From Myxococcota bacterium (GTDB taxonomy: Bacteria > Myxococcota > JACRCW01): a DNA stretch of 14,438 nt. Position numbers and translations under genes: made by a program. Below the pieces are notes generated by a model, which did no database searches, was not told where the DNA came from, and saw only the letters and a program-made list of their open reading frames with translations. The stretch is from NCBI GenBank assembly GCA_040752415.1, contig JBFMGU010000265.1, positions 1 through 14,438 of the forward strand, read 5' to 3'. Below, in pieces: positions 203 through 14,438 of the stretch (the first letter of the stretch is position 1; every line of letters starts with the position of its first letter).

Positions 203-499
203 TCACCCGCCCGCGCGCTTCTCCCTCATCCGCAGCACGATATCCATCAGCACCACGAGCCCGATGCCCCACATCAGCAGCAGCGGCAGGCTCATGGGCA
301 GCGCGCGCACCACCGCTTCCGTCGACGGCGCCAGCGCGAAGGCCAGACCGTGGGAGAGCAGGTCAAACACCGCCGCCGACGTGAGCAACGTGGCCAGCGA
401 GCGACCCGGGCGCGCCTTGCGCAGCCGCCAGTGCACCAGGAAGGTCACCAGCAGCACCAACCCGAAGAAGACCACCGCAATGGACGCCTTGACCGGCAT
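203..499 (-). CDS. Small hypothetical membrane protein (98 aa, about 3 TM helices)
   Basis: ATG to TGA ORF with three hydrophobic stretches (SIAVVFFGLVLLVTFLV, LATLLTSAAVFDLLSHGLAFALA, LPLLLMWGIGLVVLMDIVL) flanked by basic residues. Divergent from the protease gene. Confidence 0.65.
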   Translation of the reverse strand: MPVKASIAVVFFGLVLLVTFLVHWRLRKARPGRSLATLLTSAAVFDLLSHGLAFALAPSTEAVVRALPMSLPLLLMWGIGLVVLMDIVLRMREKRAGG

Positions 500-580
500 T
501 TCCCGACGAGCCTCCGCGCGTGCGCTCTAACCGCCCGCCGCACAGTTTGTCGACCCGTTCCCCGGTGCTACACGGGCGCC

Positions 581-1990
581 ATGCGTTGCCTGCGACCCCT
601 GCTCGTGGCCACGTCCCTGCTTGGCGCGGGGGACGGCTGGGCCAATGCCCTGGACCACCTGCGCACCAAGGATGACATCGGGCTCAACAAGGTGCCGTCG
701 TCGGGAATCTCCCGCGTGCTGGTAATTCCGGTGCGCGTGGGCAGCGGGCTCACCACCAGTGAGCGCAACCAGCTGGAGAGCATCTTCGACCCCGCCGGTG
801 GCGTCGGCACGTTCCGCGAGTACTGGCAGGTCAACTCCGGCGGGCGCTACGACCCCATGCCCGTCCTCGTCGACCCCGTGGTCTACACCGACCGCTGTCC
901 CATCCCCGGCAAGACGCTGAGCAACTGCACCTTCTCGCTCAACGACCTCGGCCTCATCAGCAGCAAGGGCCTCAAGACCACGCTGGAGGACATCCTGGGC
1001 CGCGTCCGCGACGAGCAGGACGTGGACCTCACGCAGTTCGACATCAACGGCGTCAACGGCACGCCCGACGGCTACTTTGACGGCCTCATCATCGACACCG
1101 ACATGTACAGCGGCATCGGTTTTCCGCTCGCCGCGTTGGACAACACCGCGGTGGTCTCGGTGACGCCGGGACAGCCCGACGCGGGCGCCACGGGGGCCAC
1201 GTTGACGGCGGGGATCGTCGCCATGATTCCGCCGGAGTTGCACGAGTATGGCCACGTGCTCGGCTTCATCGACCTCTACGGTGGTCCCACCGTCAATGAC
1301 CTCATGAAGGACATCGACTCCACGCTGGGCGCGTTCAGCCGCCTGCAGATCGGCTGGGGCGAGGCCACGGATGTCACCGGTGACCTCGAGATCGACCTGC
1401 CGCCGGTGCTGGAGGGCGGAACCATACTGCGCTTCGGCAGCGCGCCGCGCTACGTGCTGGTGGAGAACCGCGGCGGCACGCAACACGGCATCTACGACGA
1501 GTCGCATCCCGGCATCTACGTGTACAGCGTCGACGAGAGCGAGCTGCCCACCGACCCGCTCGGCTTCATCGACATCTTCAACCGCACGCTCTACCTGCCC
1601 AACCAGGATCCGCCCTACCTGTTCGTGAACATGCCGGTGGACTGCAACCTGGGCTCGCGCACGCGACCAGGGACCTGCGCGTTGGCGGCGGAGAACGAGG
1701 GCCGCGTGCTCACGCATGCCAGCGGGGAGTCCGTGGGCTTCGCCATCCGTCGTGGCGCCACGCAACCGGAGGGCACCATCCATCTCTCCATCCGCCAGGG
1801 CACGGAGCTGCCGCCGGAGATTCCCAGCAGCACGCAACCCGACGCGGGCACCACGACGACGCCACCGTCGGAGGAACCGTCCCAGACCGGCGGCTGCGCC
1901 AGTTGTGAATTGGCCACGGCCTCTCCGCTCGCACTGCTCGCGCTGCTGCTGCGTCGTCGACGCTCCTGCAGCGGTTCCCGGTGGAGTTGA
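581..1990 (+). CDS. Secreted zinc metalloprotease, M6 (immune inhibitor A)-like, with MYXO-CTERM-like C-terminal sorting signal
   Basis: Start moved to ATG 581 (MRCLRPLLVATSLLGAGDGWANA, signal-peptide-like). M6-like motifs: RVLVIPV, TFREYWQVNSGG, DLTQFD..DGYFD, HEYGHVLGFIDLY (HExxH at 1241-1255), LGAFSRLQIGW, YVLVENR, GIYVYSVDE. The tail is a Pro/Ser/Thr linker, GGC, a hydrophobic stretch and RRRR (~1889-1965). Confidence 0.8.
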   Translation: MRCLRPLLVATSLLGAGDGWANALDHLRTKDDIGLNKVPSSGISRVLVIPVRVGSGLTTSERNQLESIFDPAGGVGTFREYWQVNSGGRYDPMPVLVDPVVYTDRCPIPGKTLSNCTFSLNDLGLISSKGLKTTLEDILGRVRDEQDVDLTQFDINGVNGTPDGYFDGLIIDTDMYSGIGFPLAALDNTAVVSVTPGQPDAGATGATLTAGIVAMIPPELHEYGHVLGFIDLYGGPTVNDLMKDIDSTLGAFSRLQIGWGEATDVTGDLEIDLPPVLEGGTILRFGSAPRYVLVENRGGTQHGIYDESHPGIYVYSVDESELPTDPLGFIDIFNRTLYLPNQDPPYLFVNMPVDCNLGSRTRPGTCALAAENEGRVLTHASGESVGFAIRRGATQPEGTIHLSIRQGTELPPEIPSSTQPDAGTTTTPPSEEPSQTGGCASCELATASPLALLALLLRRRRSCSGSRWS

Positions 1991-2068
1991 CCGTGACGAC
2001 GGGATGGACCTGACGCCTGCGAATTGATGGGCCCTTGGCCGCGGAATCGCAGACAAGAATGGATGGAA

Positions 2069-2358: not shown

Positions 2359-5300
2359 TCAGTGCGTCGTCAACAGGACCAACATGTTGTTGGGATCCCG
2401 CACGCCCAAGGCCAGGTCGGCCCGCCCGTCGCTCAGCAGGTCACCCACGGCCACGTGCGCGCCGTAACCGGGCAGGCCGCGACGCTGCAGCAGGTTGAAG
2501 TTCCCGGTCCCGTCGCCCAGGTGGAGGCTCACCACGCGCGCGGTGGTCTCGGTGGCAATCACGTCGGCCATTCCGTCGTCATTCCAGTCCATCACCACCA
2601 GGTCCAAGGGGCTGATGGGCAGCACGGGACCTTGCAGCAGCGTACCGGCCCCTTCGCCAAACCAGGTCTGCACCTGTCCTTCTCCGCCAGGCGTCACGTT
2701 CTCTCCCGCCAGGACCACGTCGTTGTCACCGTCGTGATCCAGGTCCGCGGCGAAGACGCGGCGGGGGATGAGGCCCGCCGGGTGGAACGACGCGCTGGGC
2801 AGGTCACCCGGCGCGCCGGGCACCAGGGTCAACACCGCCACCTCCGCGCTGTCGCAGCCGATGACGAGGTCCAGCCAGCCGTCGCGGTTGAAGTCGGCCA
2901 ACGCCACCGCGGTCACGAGGTTGCAGGCGGTGGGAATGTCCACCGGGGCGAAGGACTCCCCGTCGCCGAGCAGCAGGTGCACCTTGTCGCCCGCGGTGGT
3001 GACCACGTCGAGGTAGCCGTTGTTGTCCACGTCACCCACGTCGAGCTGACCGGGGCTCACCAGGAGGGAATAGCCCATGGGTGTCCAGCTTTCGCCGTTG
3101 CTCAGGTGGAACCGCACCTCGAACAGCGGGTCCTGGTCGACGGAAGTCACGAAGTCGTCGATGCCATCGCGGTTGAAGTCGCCGTGCGCCAGCGCTCGCA
3201 CGCCGGTCGTCACGTCGATGTCCAGGCCGTAGGACACGGTGGCGCTGCCGTCGCCGTAGTAGAGTGCCACGGCGCCCTGGTCGGCGGTCACCACGTCATG
3301 CGCACCGTCGTGGTCGACGTCGGTCACCACCAGGCCCACCACCGCGCTGGCGACGGGGACCACCGCGTCGGGCAACGCACCCATCTCCACCGAGGGCACC
3401 ACCGCCACGGTGCGGTCCACGTTCGCGTGACCCACCACGAGGTCCGCGGCTCCGTCGGCATCCAGGTCCGCGGACGCCAGCGCGCCAATGGCCTCAATCA
3501 CGTCGACGTCGGAGCTGCTGTAGGAGTCGGCGAGGCCGGGACGGACCACGCGCACCACGCTGCCACCGGGAGCCGCCACCGCCACCGCGCCGCCCAACGT
3601 CGTGGCCAGCGTGGTGTTGGGGAGCACCGGAGCAATGACCCGAGGCTGGAACGCGCGCGCGCCCAGGTTCTCGCGGAAGTGCAGCCCGTCGGCGCGGAGG
3701 ATGGCCAGGTCCGGGAGCGCATCCAGCGTGAAGCCCACGACGACCACACCGTGCACCCCTGGCTCGGCGGACTCCGTGGGGCCGGTGAATCCGCCGTGAC
3801 CGTCGCCCCAGTACAGCTGCACGTTCCCAGCCACCCCGTCGACGACAATGGCGTCCAACAGACCATCACCGTCCAGGTCCGCGGAAAGCATCTGGGTTGC
3901 CGTGCCCGCCAGGCCGGTCCTGACCACGTCGCGCTGGTACGGGCGGGGCCCGCGCACCAGCTCCAGCGTGTCCGCCTTGCGCACGAGAATGTCCATCTCG
4001 CCATCCAGGTTGAAATCACCGCTGGTGAACGCAATGGCGTTGCTGGCCATGATCGCGGAGGGGCGCAGCGTGCCGGCATCCCAGACGTGGACCTCGACGT
4101 CACCATTGGTGAGCCCGGCGGCCAGCTCCGCCTTTCCGTCGGCGCGCACCGCCAGCGCCTCGAGCTGCTTCACCGCCCCACGCACATGGGAACCATCCGG
4201 GTACAGCGCGCCGTCGCCCAGGCCCCGCAGCGCATCCACGCTTCCCGCGGCGCCACCGGTCAGCACGTCGGGTTTTCCGTCGAGGTTGTAGTCCATCACC
4301 GCCAGGGCGGTCGCCGCGTCGCTGACGCGAACCACGTGCGGCGCGGGCTGCAGCGACGGGGCACAGGCGCGGAAGCGCTGGTTCAGCAACAACGTGACAT
4401 GCGTGGCGTCGACGTGGCCCACGGCGAGATCGGTGCTTCCGTCGCCGTCGATGTCCGCGGGGGTCATCACCCCGGGAGCATCCGGGACCACCACGGTCTC
4501 GGGGGTGCTCGTGCCATCCAGCGGTCCCCACAGGCGCACCAGGTCCACGGTGTCGTTGGCCACCAGGTCCAGCCAGCCGTCGTCGTCGAGGTCGAGCACG
4601 GCAATGGGCGCCAGCGCCGTGGTGATGGCCACGCGCGCGCCAAAGGAGAACGCGCCCTGACCATGGAACACGGCGGTACCCGCATCCGACGCCACCACCA
4701 CGTCGACGACGGAGTCGCGGTCCACGTCGGCCGCCACCACCAGGGACACCACTCCGGTTTCACCCAGCGGCACTCCGGCCTGGAAGTTCGGCCCCGCGGC
4801 CAAGGTGACGTTGGGATCCGTGCCGCCGAAGATCAACGCATCCACCGCGCCGTCGTCGTCCAGGTCCGCGAGCTCCAACCCGGATGCGCTGGCGCGCAGG
4901 CTGGCGGACACGAACGCCGCGTACACTCCCGGCGTGCGCGACGAGACCCGCCACACCAACGCCCCCGCGGCGGTGGCCACCACCACGTCCGGCCACCCGT
5001 CTCCGTCGACGTCACCCACGCGCAGCGCGGCCACTCCCGCCCCGGGGCTCATGGCCAGGCTGAGCGGCGCGGCAAAGGTTCCGTCCCCAACGTTCTCGAG
5101 GAGAAGCACCTCGCTCGACTCGTTCGCTCCCACCAGCAGGTCCACGTCGCCGTCGTGATCCATGTCCGCGGCCTCCACGCCGACGAGGTCGTGGCCGCTG
5201 AGGTCCACGGTGCGCTCGTTGAACCCGGGGGACTCGCGCTCGTAGATGCGCACGGCGCCAGGGAGCAGCGCGGCGATCTCCGGTGTTCCGTCGCCATCCA

Positions 5301-8300
5301 GCTCCGCCACGGCCACGTCGGTCACGTCGAGGTTGGGGACGAAGTACTCCGGCACCAGGTTCACGTCGTTGCCGACGGTGAAGGTGTTGGACGTGACCCA
5401 GCCGCTCTCCACGTCGCGCAGACGGCTGAGCACGCGCACCTGCGCCGTCGACGCGCGGCTTCCCCGCAGGTCACGCGTGCTGTTCCACAGGAACGTGCGG
5501 GCCACGCCGCCGGGCGTGCCGGGAACGCCCGACACGCCGTGGAAACCTGAGTGCGCGGGCGCCTGCGTGGCCGGGAAGAACGTGCTCCCATCCAGCGACC
5601 ATTCCACGACGACGTCAACAGTCCGAGACGCCGGCTGCGCCAGGTTGTAACGCACCTCCACGCATCCCCCGGCAACCGGGTCGACGTCGACACCACTGAC
5701 CGCCGGGACGCCGAGGACCACGGTGAAGAGGTTGCTTTCCGTCGGAGCGACGCCGGACAGCAACACGCGCAACTGGAAGATGCCGGGTTCGCTGACGGAG
5801 ACGGAGAAGGTGGCGCTGCCGGTGTTGGCGGGCGGGGTGAGCAGGGTCTGACCGCGCAGTCGCGCCGGGTCCGGGCCCACCAGCTCCAGGTGGAACGCGT
5901 CGGACGTCGGAGCCTCGTTGTCGAAGAGGTCCCGCGCCGTGACGGTGACATCCATCGGCACAAGCGCCACACCGTCCTGGGGCTGCTGCGTGAAGACCAG
6001 CTGCGCAGGTTCGGCCGCGGTGACCTCCACGGTGTGCGTTCCCCGGATCGACGGTATCACCGCGTCCTGCACCACCACCTCCCACGCCCCGGTGCGACGC
6101 ATCACCACGCCGCCGGAGAACGTGTGCTCGCCGGAGTCCACGGCGGGCTGGAAGGAATGGTCGGCGGGAACGTTGCCGGTGGTGTCGGCGCTCAGGACCT
6201 GCACCGTGCCCGCGTAGCCCGGAGTGACGTTGTCGTAGTCATCCAGCGCCGTGACGACGAGATCATGCGCTTCGCCGGCACGCACGCTGTCCGGCATGGT
6301 CAGCAGGAACCGCGTGGTGAGCCCGGGACCCACCCGCACGGAGGCGCTGGCGGACAACCCGTTGACGATGTCATCAGCCGTCACCGTCTGGTCGCCCGGG
6401 GTCACCAGCGTCAGCGCACCGGCGAACAGGAAGTAGCCCGCGTCGACACCATCAAAGGTGTGCGTGGCGCTGACCGCCGCCGCGTTGTCCGACGAGGAAA
6501 GCGCCACCGTGCCGCGATAGGACGTGGCGTGATTCCCGAACGCGTCGTGCGCGGTCACCATGACGTCGTTGGGCTGCCCCGCGCCCACCACGTCGGGGAC
6601 CTCCAGCAGCAGCACGGCCGCCTCCCCCGCGCTCACGTCCACCGACGAGCCCACGTCGACGGCGTGGTCCAGGTCCACCAGGTGGACGAAGAAGCGCCCC
6701 GCCGTGCGCAGCTCCACGGTGAACACGTGCTCGGCGTTGTCGTCGGCGGTGAAGGTGTGGGGCGGAGGCAGCTGGGCGTGCGGGTCGTTGGAGGTGACGG
6801 TGATGGTGCCGCGGTACCAGGTGGCGCGCTCCCCGGTGACGGCGTCATCCATGCGCACCAGCACCGTGAACGGAACGCCCGCCACCGCGGCGCTGGGCGA
6901 CTCCTTGTACGGCGCGAAGGTGATGGACGGCAGGGTGCAGTCCGCGAAGCACGTCTCGTCCTCGACGGTGTTGCCGTCATCGCATTCCTCGCCCAGGTCG
7001 ATGATTCCGTCGCCGCAGATGCCGGCGCACGGGGCGCGGTTGTAACGGCACGTCGGGTAGGGGTCGCTGACGTCGCAGATGCCGTCGAAGTCGCGGTCGG
7101 CGCGCGTGGGATCGTTCTCGCAGGTGGGGGAGGCGGGAAGGGCGCCGGTGGGACCACAGTGGCACGGCGGGTCAAAGCTCACACTGCCCAGCGCCTCCTC
7201 CAGGTCGGCCTGGCCGTCGTTGTCGTCGTCACAGTCCACGGGAACGTTGTTCCACTGGCATGGCTCGCCGAGGTTCCGACCCGTCTGGCGACACACGTGG
7301 ATGCACTGCTCCGCCTCAGCCGGGTCCACGAAACACAGGCCATCCCCGTCGAGATCGGTCCGGCCGGCGCACGGTCCGTCCCGCTCCACCTCGTCGGGCA
7401 GAAAGAGGAAGTTGCCGCCGCCGCCATCGCTGTTCACGAGGAAACCGAGGATCCGCAACGGCAGGTACCCGCCCTCGTCCGCGGTGATCTCGGCGAGGTA
7501 GAGGCCCACCGGCAGCAGGAAGTCGTATTCCTCGTCGTCGGCGCGGGTGACGGCGTCGAAGCCGGGCACCAGCGAAGTGAACTTGTAGGTCATGCTCACC
7601 AGCGCCTGGTGCACCACGCCCAGCGCGCCACCGGCGTTCCCCTCGGGGAGCACCACGCGGCCGGTGACACGACGCTCACCCTCCAGCGCCCCGAGGACCA
7701 GCGTGGCCTCCGTGGTCAGGTTCTCGTCGACAACCACGGTGGTGGGCGGGCTGAGCAGCAGCGCGCCGGTGGTCTGCTCCCGGGCACCGGCCACCACCGT
7801 CCACGAGCCCGGTGCCAGCGGCGCAGTGAGGAAGGACCCATCGCCACCCGACGGAACCACGGTACTTCCGTCGAGAAGCGCCACCACGGTGCTGCCCGGC
7901 TCGGCGTTGCCCTGCACCACGCAGCGGATCCGTCCCGGCGCCACCAGCGCAATGTTCCCCAGGTCCACCGACGGACGGGCGCTGCGTCCGGGCGGAGGCT
8001 GGATGGACACCTGGATGCGACGGGCCAGCTCGGGAAGTCCGTCGTCATTGGCGTCGTAGGAGAGGGTGATGTGGTGGACGCCGGTGGGGAGGTTGCGCAG
8101 GGTGAAACGGCCATCCGCGCGCGACTTCCGGTTCAACGTGCTCCCGCGCAACGTGACACGCACGCCGGCCAGCGGATGGGGCGCGCCGGTCTCGCCGGGA
8201 AGGACGCCGGTCACCACGCCGGTGACGTCGCCTTCACCCAGGTGGGCGGGGAACTTCTCGAAGGTGTAGACGCATCCCACCGTCGACAACAGCAGCAGAC

Positions 8301-8316
8301 AGGTCACACCACGCAT
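2359..8316 (-). CDS. Giant surface lipoprotein (~1985 aa): carboxypeptidase-regulatory-like domain, Ca-binding DxDxDG motifs, Myxococcus Cys-rich repeat, Ig-like repeats and FG-GAP/VCBS beta-propeller repeats
   Basis: Start MRGVTCLLLLSTVG-C, with a lipobox-like Cys at 8274-8272. PLAGVRVTL...ADGRFTLRNLP domain. DLDGDG, DDDNDG and DRDFDG motifs (~7030-7370). CGDGIIDLGEECDDGN...C (7017-6937). Three to four ~100-aa Ig-like repeats (~5720-6900). Many xDxDxDGxxDxxV FG-GAP motifs (~2359-5340). Confidence 0.9.
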   Translation of the reverse strand: MRGVTCLLLLSTVGCVYTFEKFPAHLGEGDVTGVVTGVLPGETGAPHPLAGVRVTLRGSTLNRKSRADGRFTLRNLPTGVHHITLSYDANDDGLPELARRIQVSIQPPPGRSARPSVDLGNIALVAPGRIRCVVQGNAEPGSTVVALLDGSTVVPSGGDGSFLTAPLAPGSWTVVAGAREQTTGALLLSPPTTVVVDENLTTEATLVLGALEGERRVTGRVVLPEGNAGGALGVVHQALVSMTYKFTSLVPGFDAVTRADDEEYDFLLPVGLYLAEITADEGGYLPLRILGFLVNSDGGGGNFLFLPDEVERDGPCAGRTDLDGDGLCFVDPAEAEQCIHVCRQTGRNLGEPCQWNNVPVDCDDDNDGQADLEEALGSVSFDPPCHCGPTGALPASPTCENDPTRADRDFDGICDVSDPYPTCRYNRAPCAGICGDGIIDLGEECDDGNTVEDETCFADCTLPSITFAPYKESPSAAVAGVPFTVLVRMDDAVTGERATWYRGTITVTSNDPHAQLPPPHTFTADDNAEHVFTVELRTAGRFFVHLVDLDHAVDVGSSVDVSAGEAAVLLLEVPDVVGAGQPNDVMVTAHDAFGNHATSYRGTVALSSSDNAAAVSATHTFDGVDAGYFLFAGALTLVTPGDQTVTADDIVNGLSASASVRVGPGLTTRFLLTMPDSVRAGEAHDLVVTALDDYDNVTPGYAGTVQVLSADTTGNVPADHSFQPAVDSGEHTFSGGVVMRRTGAWEVVVQDAVIPSIRGTHTVEVTAAEPAQLVFTQQPQDGVALVPMDVTVTARDLFDNEAPTSDAFHLELVGPDPARLRGQTLLTPPANTGSATFSVSVSEPGIFQLRVLLSGVAPTESNLFTVVLGVPAVSGVDVDPVAGGCVEVRYNLAQPASRTVDVVVEWSLDGSTFFPATQAPAHSGFHGVSGVPGTPGGVARTFLWNSTRDLRGSRASTAQVRVLSRLRDVESGWVTSNTFTVGNDVNLVPEYFVPNLDVTDVAVAELDGDGTPEIAALLPGAVRIYERESPGFNERTVDLSGHDLVGVEAADMDHDGDVDLLVGANESSEVLLLENVGDGTFAAPLSLAMSPGAGVAALRVGDVDGDGWPDVVVATAAGALVWRVSSRTPGVYAAFVSASLRASASGLELADLDDDGAVDALIFGGTDPNVTLAAGPNFQAGVPLGETGVVSLVVAADVDRDSVVDVVVASDAGTAVFHGQGAFSFGARVAITTALAPIAVLDLDDDGWLDLVANDTVDLVRLWGPLDGTSTPETVVVPDAPGVMTPADIDGDGSTDLAVGHVDATHVTLLLNQRFRACAPSLQPAPHVVRVSDAATALAVMDYNLDGKPDVLTGGAAGSVDALRGLGDGALYPDGSHVRGAVKQLEALAVRADGKAELAAGLTNGDVEVHVWDAGTLRPSAIMASNAIAFTSGDFNLDGEMDILVRKADTLELVRGPRPYQRDVVRTGLAGTATQMLSADLDGDGLLDAIVVDGVAGNVQLYWGDGHGGFTGPTESAEPGVHGVVVVGFTLDALPDLAILRADGLHFRENLGARAFQPRVIAPVLPNTTLATTLGGAVAVAAPGGSVVRVVRPGLADSYSSSDVDVIEAIGALASADLDADGAADLVVGHANVDRTVAVVPSVEMGALPDAVVPVASAVVGLVVTDVDHDGAHDVVTADQGAVALYYGDGSATVSYGLDIDVTTGVRALAHGDFNRDGIDDFVTSVDQDPLFEVRFHLSNGESWTPMGYSLLVSPGQLDVGDVDNNGYLDVVTTAGDKVHLLLGDGESFAPVDIPTACNLVTAVALADFNRDGWLDLVIGCDSAEVAVLTLVPGAPGDLPSASFHPAGLIPRRVFAADLDHDGDNDVVLAGENVTPGGEGQVQTWFGEGAGTLLQGPVLPISPLDLVVMDWNDDGMADVIATETTARVVSLHLGDGTGNFNLLQRRGLPGYGAHVAVGDLLSDGRADLALGVRDPNNMLVLLTTH

Positions 8317-8377
8317 GGGCCCCTCCACGGGCGCCAAGAGAGCCGTGGTGCCACACGCTGTCAATGCCGGGAACGGT

Positions 8378-9694
8378 TCAGGGCACGCCCAAGCCGTAGA
8401 CGGCCATCAGCTCGTCGATCACCGCGGTGCGCTCGGCGTCGGAGAGCTCGTGGTCGTAGACGATCAGCTCGGCGATGTAGCCCTGGAAGCGCGCGGGGTC
8501 GCCGCCGTTCCAGTCCTGTTGCAGGTCGCTGTAGCCCACGCAGGTGGGGCCCGTGCCGGTGTCCAGCCCGTCGGATTCGTTGAAGTCGCTGGCAACGTTG
8601 AGTTCGGTGCGCTCCAGCCAGGCCCGGGTGTCCTCGATGCGTCCCTGCGCTGGCGTGGCGGCGGTCATGAGGCGGAAGCCGGTGGTGCCGAGCGACTGGT
8701 CATACACCTCACGCCCCCAGGCGCGCATGCTCACCTCCGGCGTCACCGCGTAGGTCTCCCCGCCGCCCGCGTTGTTGTCATTGTTGAGCTCCACGATCAC
8801 GTTGCGTTCCGCAATGCGCAGCGCCCACGCCACCACCACCACGCTGCGACCCATCGTCCCGGCCACCACGTTGGGCGCGAGCATCTCGTCTTCCTCACCG
8901 TCGAACAGCACCGCGGCATGGCCCGCGACGAGGTTGGGCACCAGCGTGGGCATGCGCCGGGTTTCCTGGGCATAGGCGTGGTGGTCGAGGCCCGAGGAGT
9001 CCGGCCATTCCTGCACCACTCCCTCCGGCGTGGCCACGACGGTATCCGCCACCAGCCACAACACCGGGTCCACGCCACCGCGCGGCAGCAGCACGCCGGA
9101 GGAACCGCCACCCGCGTCCTGCGTCACGCCCGCGTCGCGACCCGCGTCGACGACGTTGACGGTTCCCGCGTCCGCCACCGCCCCCGCATCCCGCCCTCCC
9201 GACGAGGTGCTGCTGGAGAGGCTCCCGGAGCCGCTGCTCGACGAGGAGAGCGCGCCGGAGCTGCTGCTGCTGCTGGACACCCCGCCTCCCGACGACGACG
9301 ACACGGACGCGGACGACGAGGACACCGACGCCCCCGTGCTCGCTGCCGCAGACGACGAGGCTACCGACGACGACGACGACGACGCGGACGGATCCGGCCA
9401 CGACGACGATGCCGTGCTGGCGCTGCCCGAGGAGCTCCCGTTGGACGAAGCGGCGGTCCCGGTCACCTGGGCCAGGCACGCGCCCTGGTCGCACGTCTCG
9501 GAGGCGGGGCACTCGTCGGTGGAGACGCACGCCCGACGACACACCCCGTCACGGCAGGTGTTCCCGCTGGCGCAGTCGCTGTTGGCCTCACAGTGGAAGA
9601 CGGCGTTGGGGCCGGGACACCCGGACGCCCCGGCGAGCATGAGCGCCGTGAGAGCCGCGGGGAGCGCTTGGCGCCACGTCGGGCGGGGCCACAT
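8378..9694 (-). CDS. Lipoprotein with Cys-rich N-terminal module, Ser-rich/DAG linker and a probable LamG/concanavalin-like jellyroll C-terminal domain
   Basis: Signal peptide and lipobox (ALTALMLAGASG-C). Cys module CEANSDCASGNTCRDGVC..C..C..C..C. Poly-Ser linker. C-terminal LWLVAD..V..WPDSSG..HA, AVLFDG..D, FQGYIAELIVYDHELSDAER..V...L..Y pattern typical of LamG-like domains. GGAGG lies 12 nt upstream of ATG 9694; the alternative GTG start at 9715 overlaps the upstream stop. Confidence 0.8.
   Translation of the reverse strand: MWPRPTWRQALPAALTALMLAGASGCPGPNAVFHCEANSDCASGNTCRDGVCRRACVSTDECPASETCDQGACLAQVTGTAASSNGSSSGSASTASSSWPDPSASSSSSSVASSSAAASTGASVSSSSASVSSSSGGGVSSSSSSSGALSSSSSGSGSLSSSTSSGGRDAGAVADAGTVNVVDAGRDAGVTQDAGGGSSGVLLPRGGVDPVLWLVADTVVATPEGVVQEWPDSSGLDHHAYAQETRRMPTLVPNLVAGHAAVLFDGEEDEMLAPNVVAGTMGRSVVVVAWALRIAERNVIVELNNDNNAGGGETYAVTPEVSMRAWGREVYDQSLGTTGFRLMTAATPAQGRIEDTRAWLERTELNVASDFNESDGLDTGTGPTCVGYSDLQQDWNGGDPARFQGYIAELIVYDHELSDAERTAVIDELMAVYGLGVP
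9100..9448 (-). repeat. Low-complexity coding linker: poly-Ser tracts ((GAC)n and (GCT)n on the + strand) followed by five DAG tripeptides
   Basis: Trinucleotide runs at ~9259-9275 and ~9366-9384. Translation includes SSSSSS tracts and RDAGAVADAGTVNVVDAGRDAGVTQDAGG. Confidence 0.85.
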
Positions 9695-9711
9695 GCCGGC
9701 TTCCAACCTCC

Positions 9712-10770
9712 TCACCCGTTCCGGAATCCTCCGGTCAACAGGGTGGCCACGGGGATGGCGGGCGTGTTGGCCTGGCTGCCGCGGTGGATGGCGCGGGCCA
9801 GGCTGTAGTTGTCGGGCATGCTGACGGTGGCGGAGACGGCGTCGTCGTGGGCGCGGTCCCGGCCCTCCCCCAGGCGCAGGGAGCCGTTGTCGGCGTGGAA
9901 CTCCGCCAGGTACTGCCCTGAAGCCACGCCCATGGACAACACCGCGTGCGGCTTGAAGGCGTCCATGGAGCTCTGCACGCTCTTGCCCTTCTGCCCGTTG
10001 ATCGTCGGGTCGGCCACGTCGAACCTCTGGGTGTGCACCAGCACGCTGCGGACCTTGTGGGTCTGCGGGTCGCGCACCATGTACTGCCAGACCTGGGCGT
10101 CGGGATTCTGCTTGAGTTGCTTGTTGGTGTAGGGCGCGCCCTCCGACGTGACGAGGTCCTTGCCGAAGGCCTGCTTCATGGCCGCGTCGATGTTCTCGCG
10201 GTGGCTCACGAAGTCCCCGGTGGGGTTGTTCCGCACGTCCATGAACGTGGCGTAGCCGTTGAGCATCAGCCGCACCGGACCGCTTCTGTCCTTGGCGCTG
10301 GCGTCCAGGTAGTAGCCGCGGATGGCCGCGCCCACCACCTCCCGCGTGCCCTGGTGACGCTCCGCCTGCGTGTACGCGCTCCCGTCGACGGAGGTGTGCT
10401 CGTCGCGCGGGATGTGCAGGAAGCCCACCAGCTTCTCACCGTGCGCGTTGGTGGCCACCGAGCTGCCGCGCTTGCTGGCCTCCTGCTGCGTGGTGAAGAA
10501 CATGTGCTCGCAATAGAAGTCGCCCGGGTCGGTGCCGTGGTGCACGGTGGCGTTGGGCGTGCTCAGCACCACGTCGGGGAGGCCGCCGTTGCGCACGGTC
10601 ACCGGAGCCCCCAGCGGCGCGGTGCCAAAGCTGTCCTGCGGCGTGTGGGCCGGCGGGCTCGTCGGGGAAGCCACCGGCGTGGCCTCACCGGTGCCGTGGG
10701 TGTTCTGCGGCCCCTCGGTGTTGGTGGTCCGGTGCGGGACGCTGCTGCGGGAAATGGTCGTCGTGGTCAT
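9712..10770 (-). CDS. Pyroglutamyl peptidase I (C15)-like protein, circularly permuted, with low-complexity N-terminal extension
   Basis: Start moved to ATG 10770 (MTTTT). Motifs: DPGDFYCEHMFF (Cys 10512-10510), GFLHIP (His 10416-10414), VRLMLNGYATF...NNPT (10275-10219), KPHAVLSMGV...LAEFHADN (Glu 9903-9901). These match the four conserved Pcp motifs but in a different order. Confidence 0.75.
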   Translation of the reverse strand: MTTTTISRSSVPHRTTNTEGPQNTHGTGEATPVASPTSPPAHTPQDSFGTAPLGAPVTVRNGGLPDVVLSTPNATVHHGTDPGDFYCEHMFFTTQQEASKRGSSVATNAHGEKLVGFLHIPRDEHTSVDGSAYTQAERHQGTREVVGAAIRGYYLDASAKDRSGPVRLMLNGYATFMDVRNNPTGDFVSHRENIDAAMKQAFGKDLVTSEGAPYTNKQLKQNPDAQVWQYMVRDPQTHKVRSVLVHTQRFDVADPTINGQKGKSVQSSMDAFKPHAVLSMGVASGQYLAEFHADNGSLRLGEGRDRAHDDAVSATVSMPDNYSLARAIHRGSQANTPAIPVATLLTGGFRNG

Positions 10771-10916
10771 GGCAGGTCGGGCCCCAGGGGAGGGGGTCCG
10801 GGAACTGTAGGTCGGGGAAAATGATCTTGCACCTCCCCGGCGGACCGATGCGCGCGGATCCGCCATCCCCGCGGGTGAGAGAACGGCGCCTTCATCCCGA
10901 CCACGATTTGCGGCGC

Positions 10917-10942
10917 CATTCCTGAGCATTCCTGACCGGTCA
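10917..10942. promoter_or_regulatory. Candidate operator: direct repeat CATTCCTGA-G-CATTCCTGA overlapping the palindrome TGACCGGTCA
   Basis: A 9-bp direct repeat at 10917-10925 and 10927-10935, and a perfect 10-bp palindrome at 10933-10942, in the middle of the 317-bp divergent intergenic region. Confidence 0.35.
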
Positions 10943-11087
10943 ACGTGATGGGACCCGCGGTCTTCGCCACGCACTGACGTCGTGCATCCACGTGTTGCAC
11001 CGCGTCCGCGTCCAACGTCGAGGCACGTGCTCCCGCGTCGGTGGTTCCTTAGGTTTCCACCAGCTCATCCGTTGGCAGGAGGGTGTG

Positions 11088-11372
11088 ATGAGGATGCCCA
11101 TCATCCAGGAATGCTCGGTGGACGCGTGCGCGTACAATCAGAACAAGGCCTGTCACGCTCTGGCCATCACCGTCGGTGACACGCGCCATCCCCACTGCGA
11201 CACGTTCTGCCCCACCGCCGGGAAGGGCGGCGACCCCAGCGCCACCGGGCGCGTGGGCGCATGCAAGGTTGCCGATTGCCAGCACAACACCAACCTGGAA
11301 TGCCAGGCGCCGCAGATCGCCGTGGGCTACCAGCAGGGACAGGTGGACTGCCTGACCTACAAGCACCGCTGA
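11088..11372 (+). CDS. DUF1540-like Cys-rich small protein (two repeats)
   Basis: AGGAGG at 11077-11082 precedes ATG 11088 (alternative ATG 11094). Two copies of C-x4-C-x-[YH]-N-x3/4-C-x-A-x2-I-x-V...C-x-T-[FY]: CSVDACAYNQNKACHALAITV..CDTF and CKVADCQHNTNLECQAPQIAV..CLTY. Confidence 0.88.
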   Translation: MRMPIIQECSVDACAYNQNKACHALAITVGDTRHPHCDTFCPTAGKGGDPSATGRVGACKVADCQHNTNLECQAPQIAVGYQQGQVDCLTYKHR

Positions 11373-13689: not shown

Positions 13690-14427
13690 CTAATCCGGCT
13701 CTTCCACCGTGGCCAACAGCGGCGCGCCATGACGACGGGCATACGCATTGATCAACGCGGCGCGTTTGAGCGCGTCCTCGCGGAACATCGCCCCCAGTGT
13801 GCTCTTGCCCTCGCGGTGCACCTGCAGCATCAGCTCGGTGGCCTTGGGCTGCTCCAGACCGCCCACGCGCTCCAGCACGTCGACGACGAAATCCATGTTC
13901 GTGAAGTTGTCGTTGTGGATCACCACCTGGGCCAGCTCCCCCTGCACCGCGGTGGGCTTGGATTCCGGGCTCGGTGAGCCGTGCGCCAGGGCGCAGAGCA
14001 GCCGCGCGCGGGTGACGCCGTGCTCGCTCAGGAACGAGAACGAGGGACAGAACGAGAACATCAACATGCCGCGCAGCAGGTGCAACGGCGTCACCGTCAC
14101 GCCGGGATGACCCGCTTCCACCTCGGCGTAGCGCAGCACGGTCTCGTGGTAGACGGTGGGCCGCGGATTGACGGTGCCTTCCTTCTGCACCCGCGCGGTC
14201 TCCTGCACAAAGCGCTGCACCGCCTCGCCCAGCGTCAACAGGTCCACGCCACAACCGCGCAGCGCTTCCATGACGTCGTCATCCGGCAGGATGGCCAGGA
14301 GCAGGTCCAGGTCGGTGACCTCACGTCGACGTCCCCGTGACGCGCGCTCCCGCGCCTCCGTCACCGCCTTCCCCAGCGCCACATCCCGAGACGGACGCCC
14401 GGTGAACCACGAGAAGAACGAGGCCAT
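13690..14427 (-). CDS. clpS: Fusion of a ClpA-type N-terminal domain and a ClpS adaptor domain
   Basis: The N-terminal ~150 aa resemble the ClpA N-domain (EAR...EVT..DLLLAIL, ALRGCGVDL, PRPT..ETVL.YA, VT..HLL, FL..HGVTR..LL..LAHG). The C-terminal ~80 aa match ClpS (VVIHNDNFTNMDFVVDVL, ATELMLQVHREGK, YAR.HG.PLLATVE). The start lies 11 nt from the window edge and the frame stays open upstream, so the true start could be outside the window. Confidence 0.85.
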   Translation of the reverse strand: MASFFSWFTGRPSRDVALGKAVTEARERASRGRRREVTDLDLLLAILPDDDVMEALRGCGVDLLTLGEAVQRFVQETARVQKEGTVNPRPTVYHETVLRYAEVEAGHPGVTVTPLHLLRGMLMFSFCPSFSFLSEHGVTRARLLCALAHGSPSPESKPTAVQGELAQVVIHNDNFTNMDFVVDVLERVGGLEQPKATELMLQVHREGKSTLGAMFREDALKRAALINAYARRHGAPLLATVEEPD

Positions 14428-14438
14428 GCCCCGACCCT

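Follow-up and report, generated by a model that had tools for sequence, protein, structure and literature searches.

The stretch of DNA analysed here, referred to as the window, is 14,438 nucleotides long (positions 1 to 14,438 of contig JBFMGU010000265.1, GenBank assembly GCA_040752415.1) and belongs to a Myxococcota bacterium whose draft genome consists of 520 contigs. Its minus strand carries a gene for a protein that we call P0001 (Table 1). Profile comparisons indicate that P0001 very probably has the pyroglutamyl peptidase I (Pcp; MEROPS family C15) fold in a natural circular permutation, with an intact Cys-His-Glu triad. The chain comprises about 58 disordered residues followed by a single domain of about 280 residues, which starts at the equivalent of canonical position ~118, in the strand that precedes the Cys helix. 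From there it passes through the helix of Cys87, the strand of His119 and the C-terminal helix, then a linker of 9-10 residues, canonical strand 1 and the Glu290 strand, and the equivalent of helix alpha-3 comes last.

Table 1. Coordinates, in the window, of the gene for P0001 and of its parts
Feature	Residues	Coordinates	Strand	Remarks
Whole gene, permuted C15-like protein P0001	1-352	9712..10770	-	Single frame without interruption; 352 codons plus stop TGA at 9712-9714
N-terminal region	1-58	10597..10770	-	Ala/Pro/Thr/Ser-rich, predicted disordered; predicted local distance difference test (pLDDT) 46-72 over first six ten-residue blocks
Block I	59-164	10279..10596	-	Equivalent to canonical Pcp ~118-200: strand, Cys helix, His strand, C-terminal helix
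Cys87 codon TGC, predicted nucleophile	87	10510..10512	-	Aligned to Cys146 of the genome's own Pcp
His119 codon CAC, predicted general base	119	10414..10416	-	Aligned to canonical His167
Linker (DASAKDRSG)	156-164	10279..10305	-	From canonical C-terminal-helix equivalent to strand-1 equivalent; helix 140-160 then strand 166-173 in model
Block II	165-336	9763..10278	-	Equivalent to canonical Pcp ~2-130 plus a family-specific insertion of ~40 residues (roughly 190-245)
Glu290 codon GAG, predicted third triad member	290	9901..9903	-	Aligned to canonical Glu79
C-terminal tail	337-352	9715..9762	-	Short, poorly conserved; pLDDT 80, 62, 49 in last blocks; alignment A1 ragged past column ~545

The longest open reading frame (ORF) over the P0001 frame extends upstream to a GTG at 10974. 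The GC content at third codon positions (GC3) is 0.955 over 9715-10770 and 0.60 over 10771-10974, and the region that precedes the permuted domain has a median length of about 61 residues in homologs. Because of this upstream drop in GC3 and the length of the region in homologs, the ATG at 10770 is the likely start. Plus-strand ORFs over the same DNA, such as 9946-10824, have a GC content of 0.94 at codon position 1 and are therefore shadows of the real P0001 frame. Simple scans found no promoter-like site at the gene; one terminator-like site, on the plus strand, falls within it, which is no more than chance expectation. Residues 1-58 are variable and of low complexity in an alignment of 60 homologs (A1), and this region contains no hydrophobic signal peptide.

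We compared A1 with an alignment of 17 canonical Pcps from the same phylum (A2), drawn from PF01470 matches in 17 of 61 sampled genomes. Whereas the A2 consensus shows the canonical motif order 1-2-3-4, the motifs of P0001 run in the order DPGDFYCEHMFF (Cys87), GFLHIP (His119), VRLMLNGYATF..NNPT (166-184) and PHAVLSMGV..AEFHADN (Glu290). The order 3-4-1-2 in one uninterrupted frame, which the original prediction had read from the letters of the gene, is thus present in all four motifs. An hhalign comparison of A1 with A2 placed P0001 residues 165-318 on canonical residues 2-117 (probability 97.5%, expect value (E) 7.3e-12) and residues 60-127 on canonical residues 118-175 (probability 95.1%, E 3.2e-8), and a third alternative alignment had a probability of 0.1%. 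When the alignment was relaxed, block I (96.4%, E 1.3e-9) covered residues 58-160 and extended to the last canonical residue, and block II (97.9%, E 6.5e-13) covered residues 165-343, with residue 165 on canonical residue 2. These two ends bear out the proposal that the equivalent of the canonical C-terminal helix runs through a short linker into the canonical first strand. Judged from these profiles, the match of P0001 to canonical Pcp is far beyond chance.

A second method gave the same picture. The HMMER profile of A2 aligned residues 71-132 of P0001 with profile positions 128-178 and residues 167-295 with positions 5-86, with a full-sequence E of 4.5e-10 (in a set of 209). This profile matched 206 of the 209 family members at E<=1e-3. 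All 183 members with two matching stretches had them swapped and none had them collinear; the other 26 had fewer than two stretches. We also scored the 209 members with family hidden Markov models of the two blocks. Block I preceded block II in 184 members, 16 members read I, II, II (block II split through a missing insertion), one read I, I, II (block I split) and eight were fragments carrying one block alone. The canonical order, II then I, was found in none. Homologs with the order of P0001, which the original prediction had proposed to seek, therefore make up all 201 members that carry both blocks. Together with the conservation of the triad across the family, the C15 homology of both halves in swapped order supports a circular permutant that keeps the Glu, Cys and His residues of Pcp.

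Searches of public collections agreed in direction. Of 18 matches of the A1 profile among PDB sequences, all weak (best E 0.009), 16 were Pcp, and the best, 1iu8, aligned in three stretches in swapped order; a single-sequence PDB search with P0001 gave just one chance match (5mkd, E 1.2). The top NCBIfam match to the ORF was PRK13197 (pyroglutamyl-peptidase I, E 1.4e-3), with ORF residues 151-199 on profile positions 139-179, the Cys-His region. Among 25 compact or signal-peptide-bearing relatives, PF01470 was the top match at E<=1 in 22 and reached its cut-off in nine, with profile positions 126-199 at the start of the protein and 2-90 further along. In the source genome PF01470 matched only a separate canonical Pcp on another contig (P0094, 200 residues, contig C82).

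Residue conservation was counted in the 209 family members, with denominators that differ per position. The three predicted triad residues are kept almost throughout: Cys87 (canonical Cys146) in 193 of 194 members, His119 (canonical His167) in 199 of 200 and Glu290 (canonical Glu79) in 190 of 202. Gly172 (canonical Gly9) is kept in 206/206 and Asn182 (canonical Asn19) in 203/204. Position 173, Tyr in P0001 and Phe10 in the canonical enzyme, is Tyr or Phe in 205/206 members; Phe176 (canonical Phe13) is Phe or Trp in 199/205; and Phe85, the counterpart of the canonical aromatic residue at Cys-2, is Phe or Tyr in 190/194. From the structural literature on Pcp, we take these last three to be the aromatic positions that line its pyrrolidone/pyroglutamyl pocket. 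Every canonical invariant position has a conserved counterpart except Asn147, which is replaced by Glu88 (160/194) and followed by a new, near-invariant His89 (186/194). In the 60 members of A1 the invariant residues include Cys87, His89, Phe117, His119, Gly172, Asn182-Pro183-Thr184 and Gly281, and Glu290 is nearly invariant. Asp123, Arg138, His139, His308, Asn321 and Arg326 are conserved in the family and have no canonical counterpart. The original prediction had noted the changes of CN to CE and of GFxPF to GYATF as possible causes of altered specificity. Both are real and family-wide, but the aromatic pocket positions are retained, not lost.

We next consider the predicted structure. An AlphaFold2 model of P0001 built with A1 forms one compact, confident domain (mean pLDDT 87.4, predicted template-modelling score 0.81), with low confidence over residues 1-58. 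Its elements are strand 75-79, helix 86-99 (Cys at its start), strand 115-121 (His), helix 140-160 and strand 166-173, followed by helices in 183-205, a hairpin at 225-250, helix 265-272, strand 276-283, strand 287-290 (Glu) and helix 323-333. For the canonical P0094, the model (pLDDT 89.3) begins with strand 3-10, helix 20-28, strand 36-43, helix 50-61, strand 65-71 and strand 76-79, and later runs through helix 115-128, strand 135-138, helix 145-156, strand 163-168 and helix 173-199. As modelled, the two orders of elements are cyclic rotations of each other, and the new termini of P0001 fall between two canonical elements, helix alpha-3 and the strand that precedes the Cys helix.

In the mechanism that we propose, Cys87, at the N terminus of its helix, would serve as nucleophile and His119, at the end of its strand, as general base, and Glu290 would orient His119, as in Pcp. 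The substrate bond would most likely be an amide beside a pyroglutamyl-like or Glu/Gln-derived group, because the three aromatic pocket positions are kept; the retained pocket argues for a pyroglutamyl-like P1 group. P0001 is probably a catalytically active thiol hydrolase. That it has true pyroglutamyl (pGlu)-aminopeptidase specificity is a more doubtful suggestion, with the chances leaning against it. Several features argue for a changed substrate or cellular location: additional conserved polar residues, the insertions, a domain that sits C-terminally, occasional signal peptides and a canonical Pcp that co-exists with P0001.

The alternative that survives best differs from the permuted-peptidase reading in function alone. 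It holds that the same permuted C15 fold has been repurposed as an exported or delivered effector hydrolase of Myxococcota, directed for example at prey-cell or extracellular targets and acting on a substrate other than N-terminal pyroglutamate. We regard this as a tentative possibility, on the lower side of even. The architecture of the family speaks for it. In 158 full-length members out of 160 the domain forms the C-terminal part of the chain and is preceded by anything from 0 to about 1,050 residues (median 61); the composition of these N-terminal regions across the family is rich in Ala (15%), Pro (13%), Thr (11%) and Ser (9%). A hydrophobic 15-mer occurs within the first 75 residues of nine members and, read by eye, a signal peptide or transmembrane helix stands directly ahead of the domain in six of them. 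However, P0001 itself has no signal peptide or recognised trafficking domain. Pfam searches of 52 longer relatives found PLAT once (P0088), a patatin-like phospholipase once (P0162) and PSD1 once, and no RHS, PAAR, LXG or similar toxin-trafficking domain. The single fusions to PLAT and patatin speak for an effector role, but in the patatin fusion Ser replaces the Cys and Asn the His. The many family-specific conserved polar residues, the two insertions and the separate canonical Pcp in the genome also favour repurposing, whereas the retained aromatic pocket positions of Pcp count against it.

The idea has a precedent in toxins. Domains of the pyroglutamyl-peptidase family have been reported in polymorphic and PVC-SS toxins, and the passage on them does not mention permutation (Zhang et al. 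2012, PMC3482391). P0001 and its relatives resemble those domains in that a C15-related domain sits at the C terminus of variable, sometimes long proteins. They differ from them in that the 52 longer relatives lack trafficking domains and no conserved immunity-like neighbour accompanies them in 18 related loci and the window. None of the neighbours of the window gene recurs in these 18 loci, and no neighbour family across the 18 loci and the window is common to more than three closely related loci. Overall, we consider an exported or effector role of P0001 rather unlikely. Less likely again is the specific proposal that P0001 represents an unrecognised effector module of predatory Myxococcota, in which new substrate-binding loops and conserved polar residues arose after permutation, variable delivery regions or signal peptides precede the C-terminal domain, and the target is not N-terminal pGlu (for example, an amide bond of prey envelope or protein). 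If true, this module would be a new clan CF peptidase family with a new biological role.

It is very unlikely that P0001 is a non-catalytic, permuted C15 pseudoenzyme that binds or serves as a scaffold. Both Cys and His are missing from one relative, P0162, but the triad is intact in P0001 and in nearly all relatives, at the frequencies given above. P0162 is a protein of 1,354 residues, of low-GC type, with a patatin-like phospholipase domain at 504-687 and a degenerate permuted domain at its C terminus, with Ser for Cys and Asn for His; its permuted domain is probably inactive.

A third alternative is that P0001 is unrelated to C15 and resembles Pcp only through motifs that match by chance on a generic three-layer alpha/beta fold. 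Several search results weigh against the permuted-peptidase reading. Pfam gave no family for P0001 even at E 10, so that the gathering score of PF01470 (22.7 bits) was not reached. Foldseek found no PDB match at E<=0.001, and its top rows were tyrosine phosphatases with a TM-score of about 0.2. In a VIA-align comparison of the model with 48,161 PDB chains, the top two chains were both Pcp structures: 3rnz_A (Z 5.7, root-mean-square deviation 3.4, 116 residues aligned, model residues 165-336 on chain residues 2-130) and 2ebj_B (Z 5.4, deviation 3.3, 113 aligned). However, these scores lie within 1 of those of unrelated alpha/beta folds (kinesin, MTAN, MoaB) and below the level of about 8 at which the tool is trusted, and the match covered block II alone. 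VIA-align of the 1,000 best Foldseek chains returned generic alpha/beta folds (IDH, kinesin, PTP, MTAN; Z<=5.6). Pcp was absent from these results because it had not been ranked by Foldseek. The ESM Atlas model of P0001 was poor (pLDDT 0.31) and gave no usable match.

Taken alone, then, the structure searches are ambiguous, with Pcp at Z<=5.7 tied with kinesin, MTAN, IDH and PTP folds. Weak results from order-dependent structure searches are nevertheless expected for a permutant. The expectation of the original prediction that PF01470 would match P0001 twice in swapped order failed for P0001 itself; it held for the compact relatives and when the phylum-specific canonical profile was used in place of PF01470. 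A chance match is effectively refuted by the two independent profile-profile matches (E 7.3e-12 and 3.2e-8), the match of the canonical Pcp profile to 206 of 209 members, the conserved counterparts of all canonical invariants but Asn147 and the 16 Pcps among 18 PDB sequence matches.

The remaining suggestion, that the swapped order reflects a chimeric assembly or two gene fragments fused in this contig, found no supporting point, although the contig comes from a 520-contig draft, and it is refuted by the permuted order of all 201 two-block relatives, which come from many independent assemblies (including 18 independently assembled loci of metagenome-assembled genomes (MAGs), in which the arrangement recurs, and 21 of 201 genomes), as well as by the uniform GC3 of 0.955 and the uninterrupted frame.

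The circularly permuted Pcp family extends well beyond the window. A homolog search from P0001 returned 93 proteins (E 3e-234 to 8e-34), whose named sources were Myxococcota or 'Deltaproteobacteria' MAGs. HMMER, run exhaustively against 1.84 billion cluster representatives, gave 353 at E<=1e-3, 221 at E<=1e-10 and 159 at E<=1e-30. Among 201 sampled Myxococcota genomes, 21 contained the family, 12 of them among the 160 of high quality. Its distribution in this sample is uneven: the permuted family is strongly enriched in one taxonomic family (10 of 11 genomes) and was found in none of 54 genomes of another. JGI names for 13 of the 93 homologs read 'pyrrolidone-carboxylate peptidase' and the remaining source-given names 'hypothetical'. 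Similarity to Pcp was thus already visible in some automatic names, but the permutation was not. No Pfam or NCBIfam model covers the permuted family, and a full-text literature search found no description of a permuted C15 enzyme. The permuted C15 family is conserved, so far undescribed and found mostly in Myxococcota.

Compared with canonical Pcp (C15, PF01470; PDB 3RNZ, 2EBJ, 1IU8), P0001 is homologous over essentially the whole canonical domain. The triad residues occupy the same motifs, conservation extends to the NP(S/T) motif, the GxA/GV strand and the aromatic pocket positions, and the set of secondary-structure elements is the same in the models. By contrast, the chain is rotated, the old termini are joined through a linker of 9-10 residues and the linear order of the triad is Cys-His-Glu instead of Glu-Cys-His. 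CN has become CEH, one insertion of about 40 residues follows helix alpha-1, another of about 11 separates the Cys helix from the His strand, and about nine residues are deleted after the Glu strand. P0001 also has a disordered N-terminal region of about 58 residues and is not detected by PF01470.

Other likenesses are more distant. Circularly permuted families of thiol peptidases exist, for example permuted NlpC/P60 members, and these share with P0001 the natural permutation of a thiol-hydrolase catalytic domain that keeps its catalytic residues. Their fold and clan are unrelated, however, and the likeness is one of evolutionary phenomenon only. Block II (165/166-336) also superposes on the N-terminal ~140 residues of MTA/SAH nucleosidase and purine nucleoside phosphorylase (Z 4.1-5.0), but these enzymes have no Cys-His-Glu triad and no sequence-profile similarity to P0001, so the likeness is at the level of fold only.

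To our knowledge, C15 is the sole family of MEROPS clan CF and is known in one chain order only. Because many enzyme families are known to include natural circular permutants, the scientific surprise is moderate; for protein evolution, the classification of peptidases and annotation, we see an interest that is moderate to good. A conserved permutant with an intact triad offers a clean case for how an enzyme fold tolerates new termini. The permutation also explains why standard models miss these proteins or annotate them only by half (no Pfam family, "hypothetical" at NCBI and "pyrrolidone-carboxylate peptidase" for 13 of 93 homologs at JGI). A new Pfam/MEROPS subfamily covering 353 sequence clusters would be justified. 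In Myxococcota, which keep canonical Pcp alongside, a second and probably non-housekeeping role of the Pcp fold is indicated.

Several further features of the family were noted. Sixteen compact members of 182-297 residues lack the insertion of about 40 residues, and compact permuted members of 205-250 residues (P0145, P0158, P0170, P0181, P0191, P0209 and others), likewise without it, have a size like that of canonical Pcp. We sought a duplication intermediate within the 209 members and found none with canonical order or a duplicated block, although tandem Pcp-Pcp fusions among canonical Pcps were not searched. The segments 'GLPDVVL' (near the N terminus) and 'MPDNYSLARAI' (near the C terminus) were considered as a relic of helix alpha-3 duplication, which we do not claim, as its only basis is overlapping, low-confidence alignment tails. 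An acidic-aromatic motif, [DE]x[FY][DEG] (QDSFG, VDGFD, SDAFD), at about residues 44-48 of P0001 recurs in the low-complexity N-terminal region of many members and could be a linear motif for processing or export.

A search for longer fused forms gave only two, and NCBIfam searches of neighbours and long relatives yielded nothing informative. P0110, P0122, P0138 and P0211 (about 950-970 residues) have in common an N-terminal region of about 680 residues that belongs to no Pfam family and contains DxDxDG-like motifs and a His...Cys pair, caspase/CHAT-like by eye. An Atlas search with the N-terminal 680 residues of P0110 gave only a sub-threshold CHAT lead (0.77). P0011 (~340-540) and P0003 (~340-440) have in common a conserved extension C-terminal to the permuted domain, GVxQPWFN...GGFEPPYYGNKGKGEYPNANQFYKWSDKY, for which we found no match in Pfam, NCBIfam or PDB sequences (a PDB search with P0011 returned 0). 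An NlpC/P60-like identity of the P0011 extension, judged by eye, was unsupported and was dropped.

In the window, an ORF of 445 residues (8378-9715, minus strand) lies directly downstream of the stop of the permuted-Pcp gene, starting either in a GTGA overlap at 9712-9715 or at an ATG at 9694 behind GAGGAGG. It encodes a putative lipoprotein in which a lipobox-like LAGASGC is accompanied by a Cys-rich stretch and a long linker rich in Ser. Neither Pfam nor NCBIfam gave a family for it, and homologs elsewhere do not have it as a neighbour. The next gene (2359-8364, minus strand) encodes a protein of 2,001 residues that contains FG-GAP/VCBS repeats (FG-GAP_3, E 1e-60) as well as a myxobacterial cysteine-rich repeat (TIGR02232, DUF4215); its N terminus matches a CarboxypepD_reg-like domain weakly, under the cut-off of Pfam. 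Because this gene begins 14 nucleotides past the lipoprotein ORF, the three genes may form an operon. Divergent from the permuted-Pcp gene is a plus-strand gene (10992-11372) for a DUF1540 protein of 126 residues with two copies of the Cys-rich domain. Two long ORFs on opposite strands overlap at 350-1990 (plus) and 527-2056 (minus), and the plus-strand one alone has a match, to an M6 metalloprotease, which is weak (E 2e-4) and far below the cut-off. At the other end of the window, a minus-strand ORF (13690-14436) of at least 248 residues runs off the contig end and carries a C-terminal ClpS adaptor domain behind an N-terminal extension that is unusually long for ClpS.

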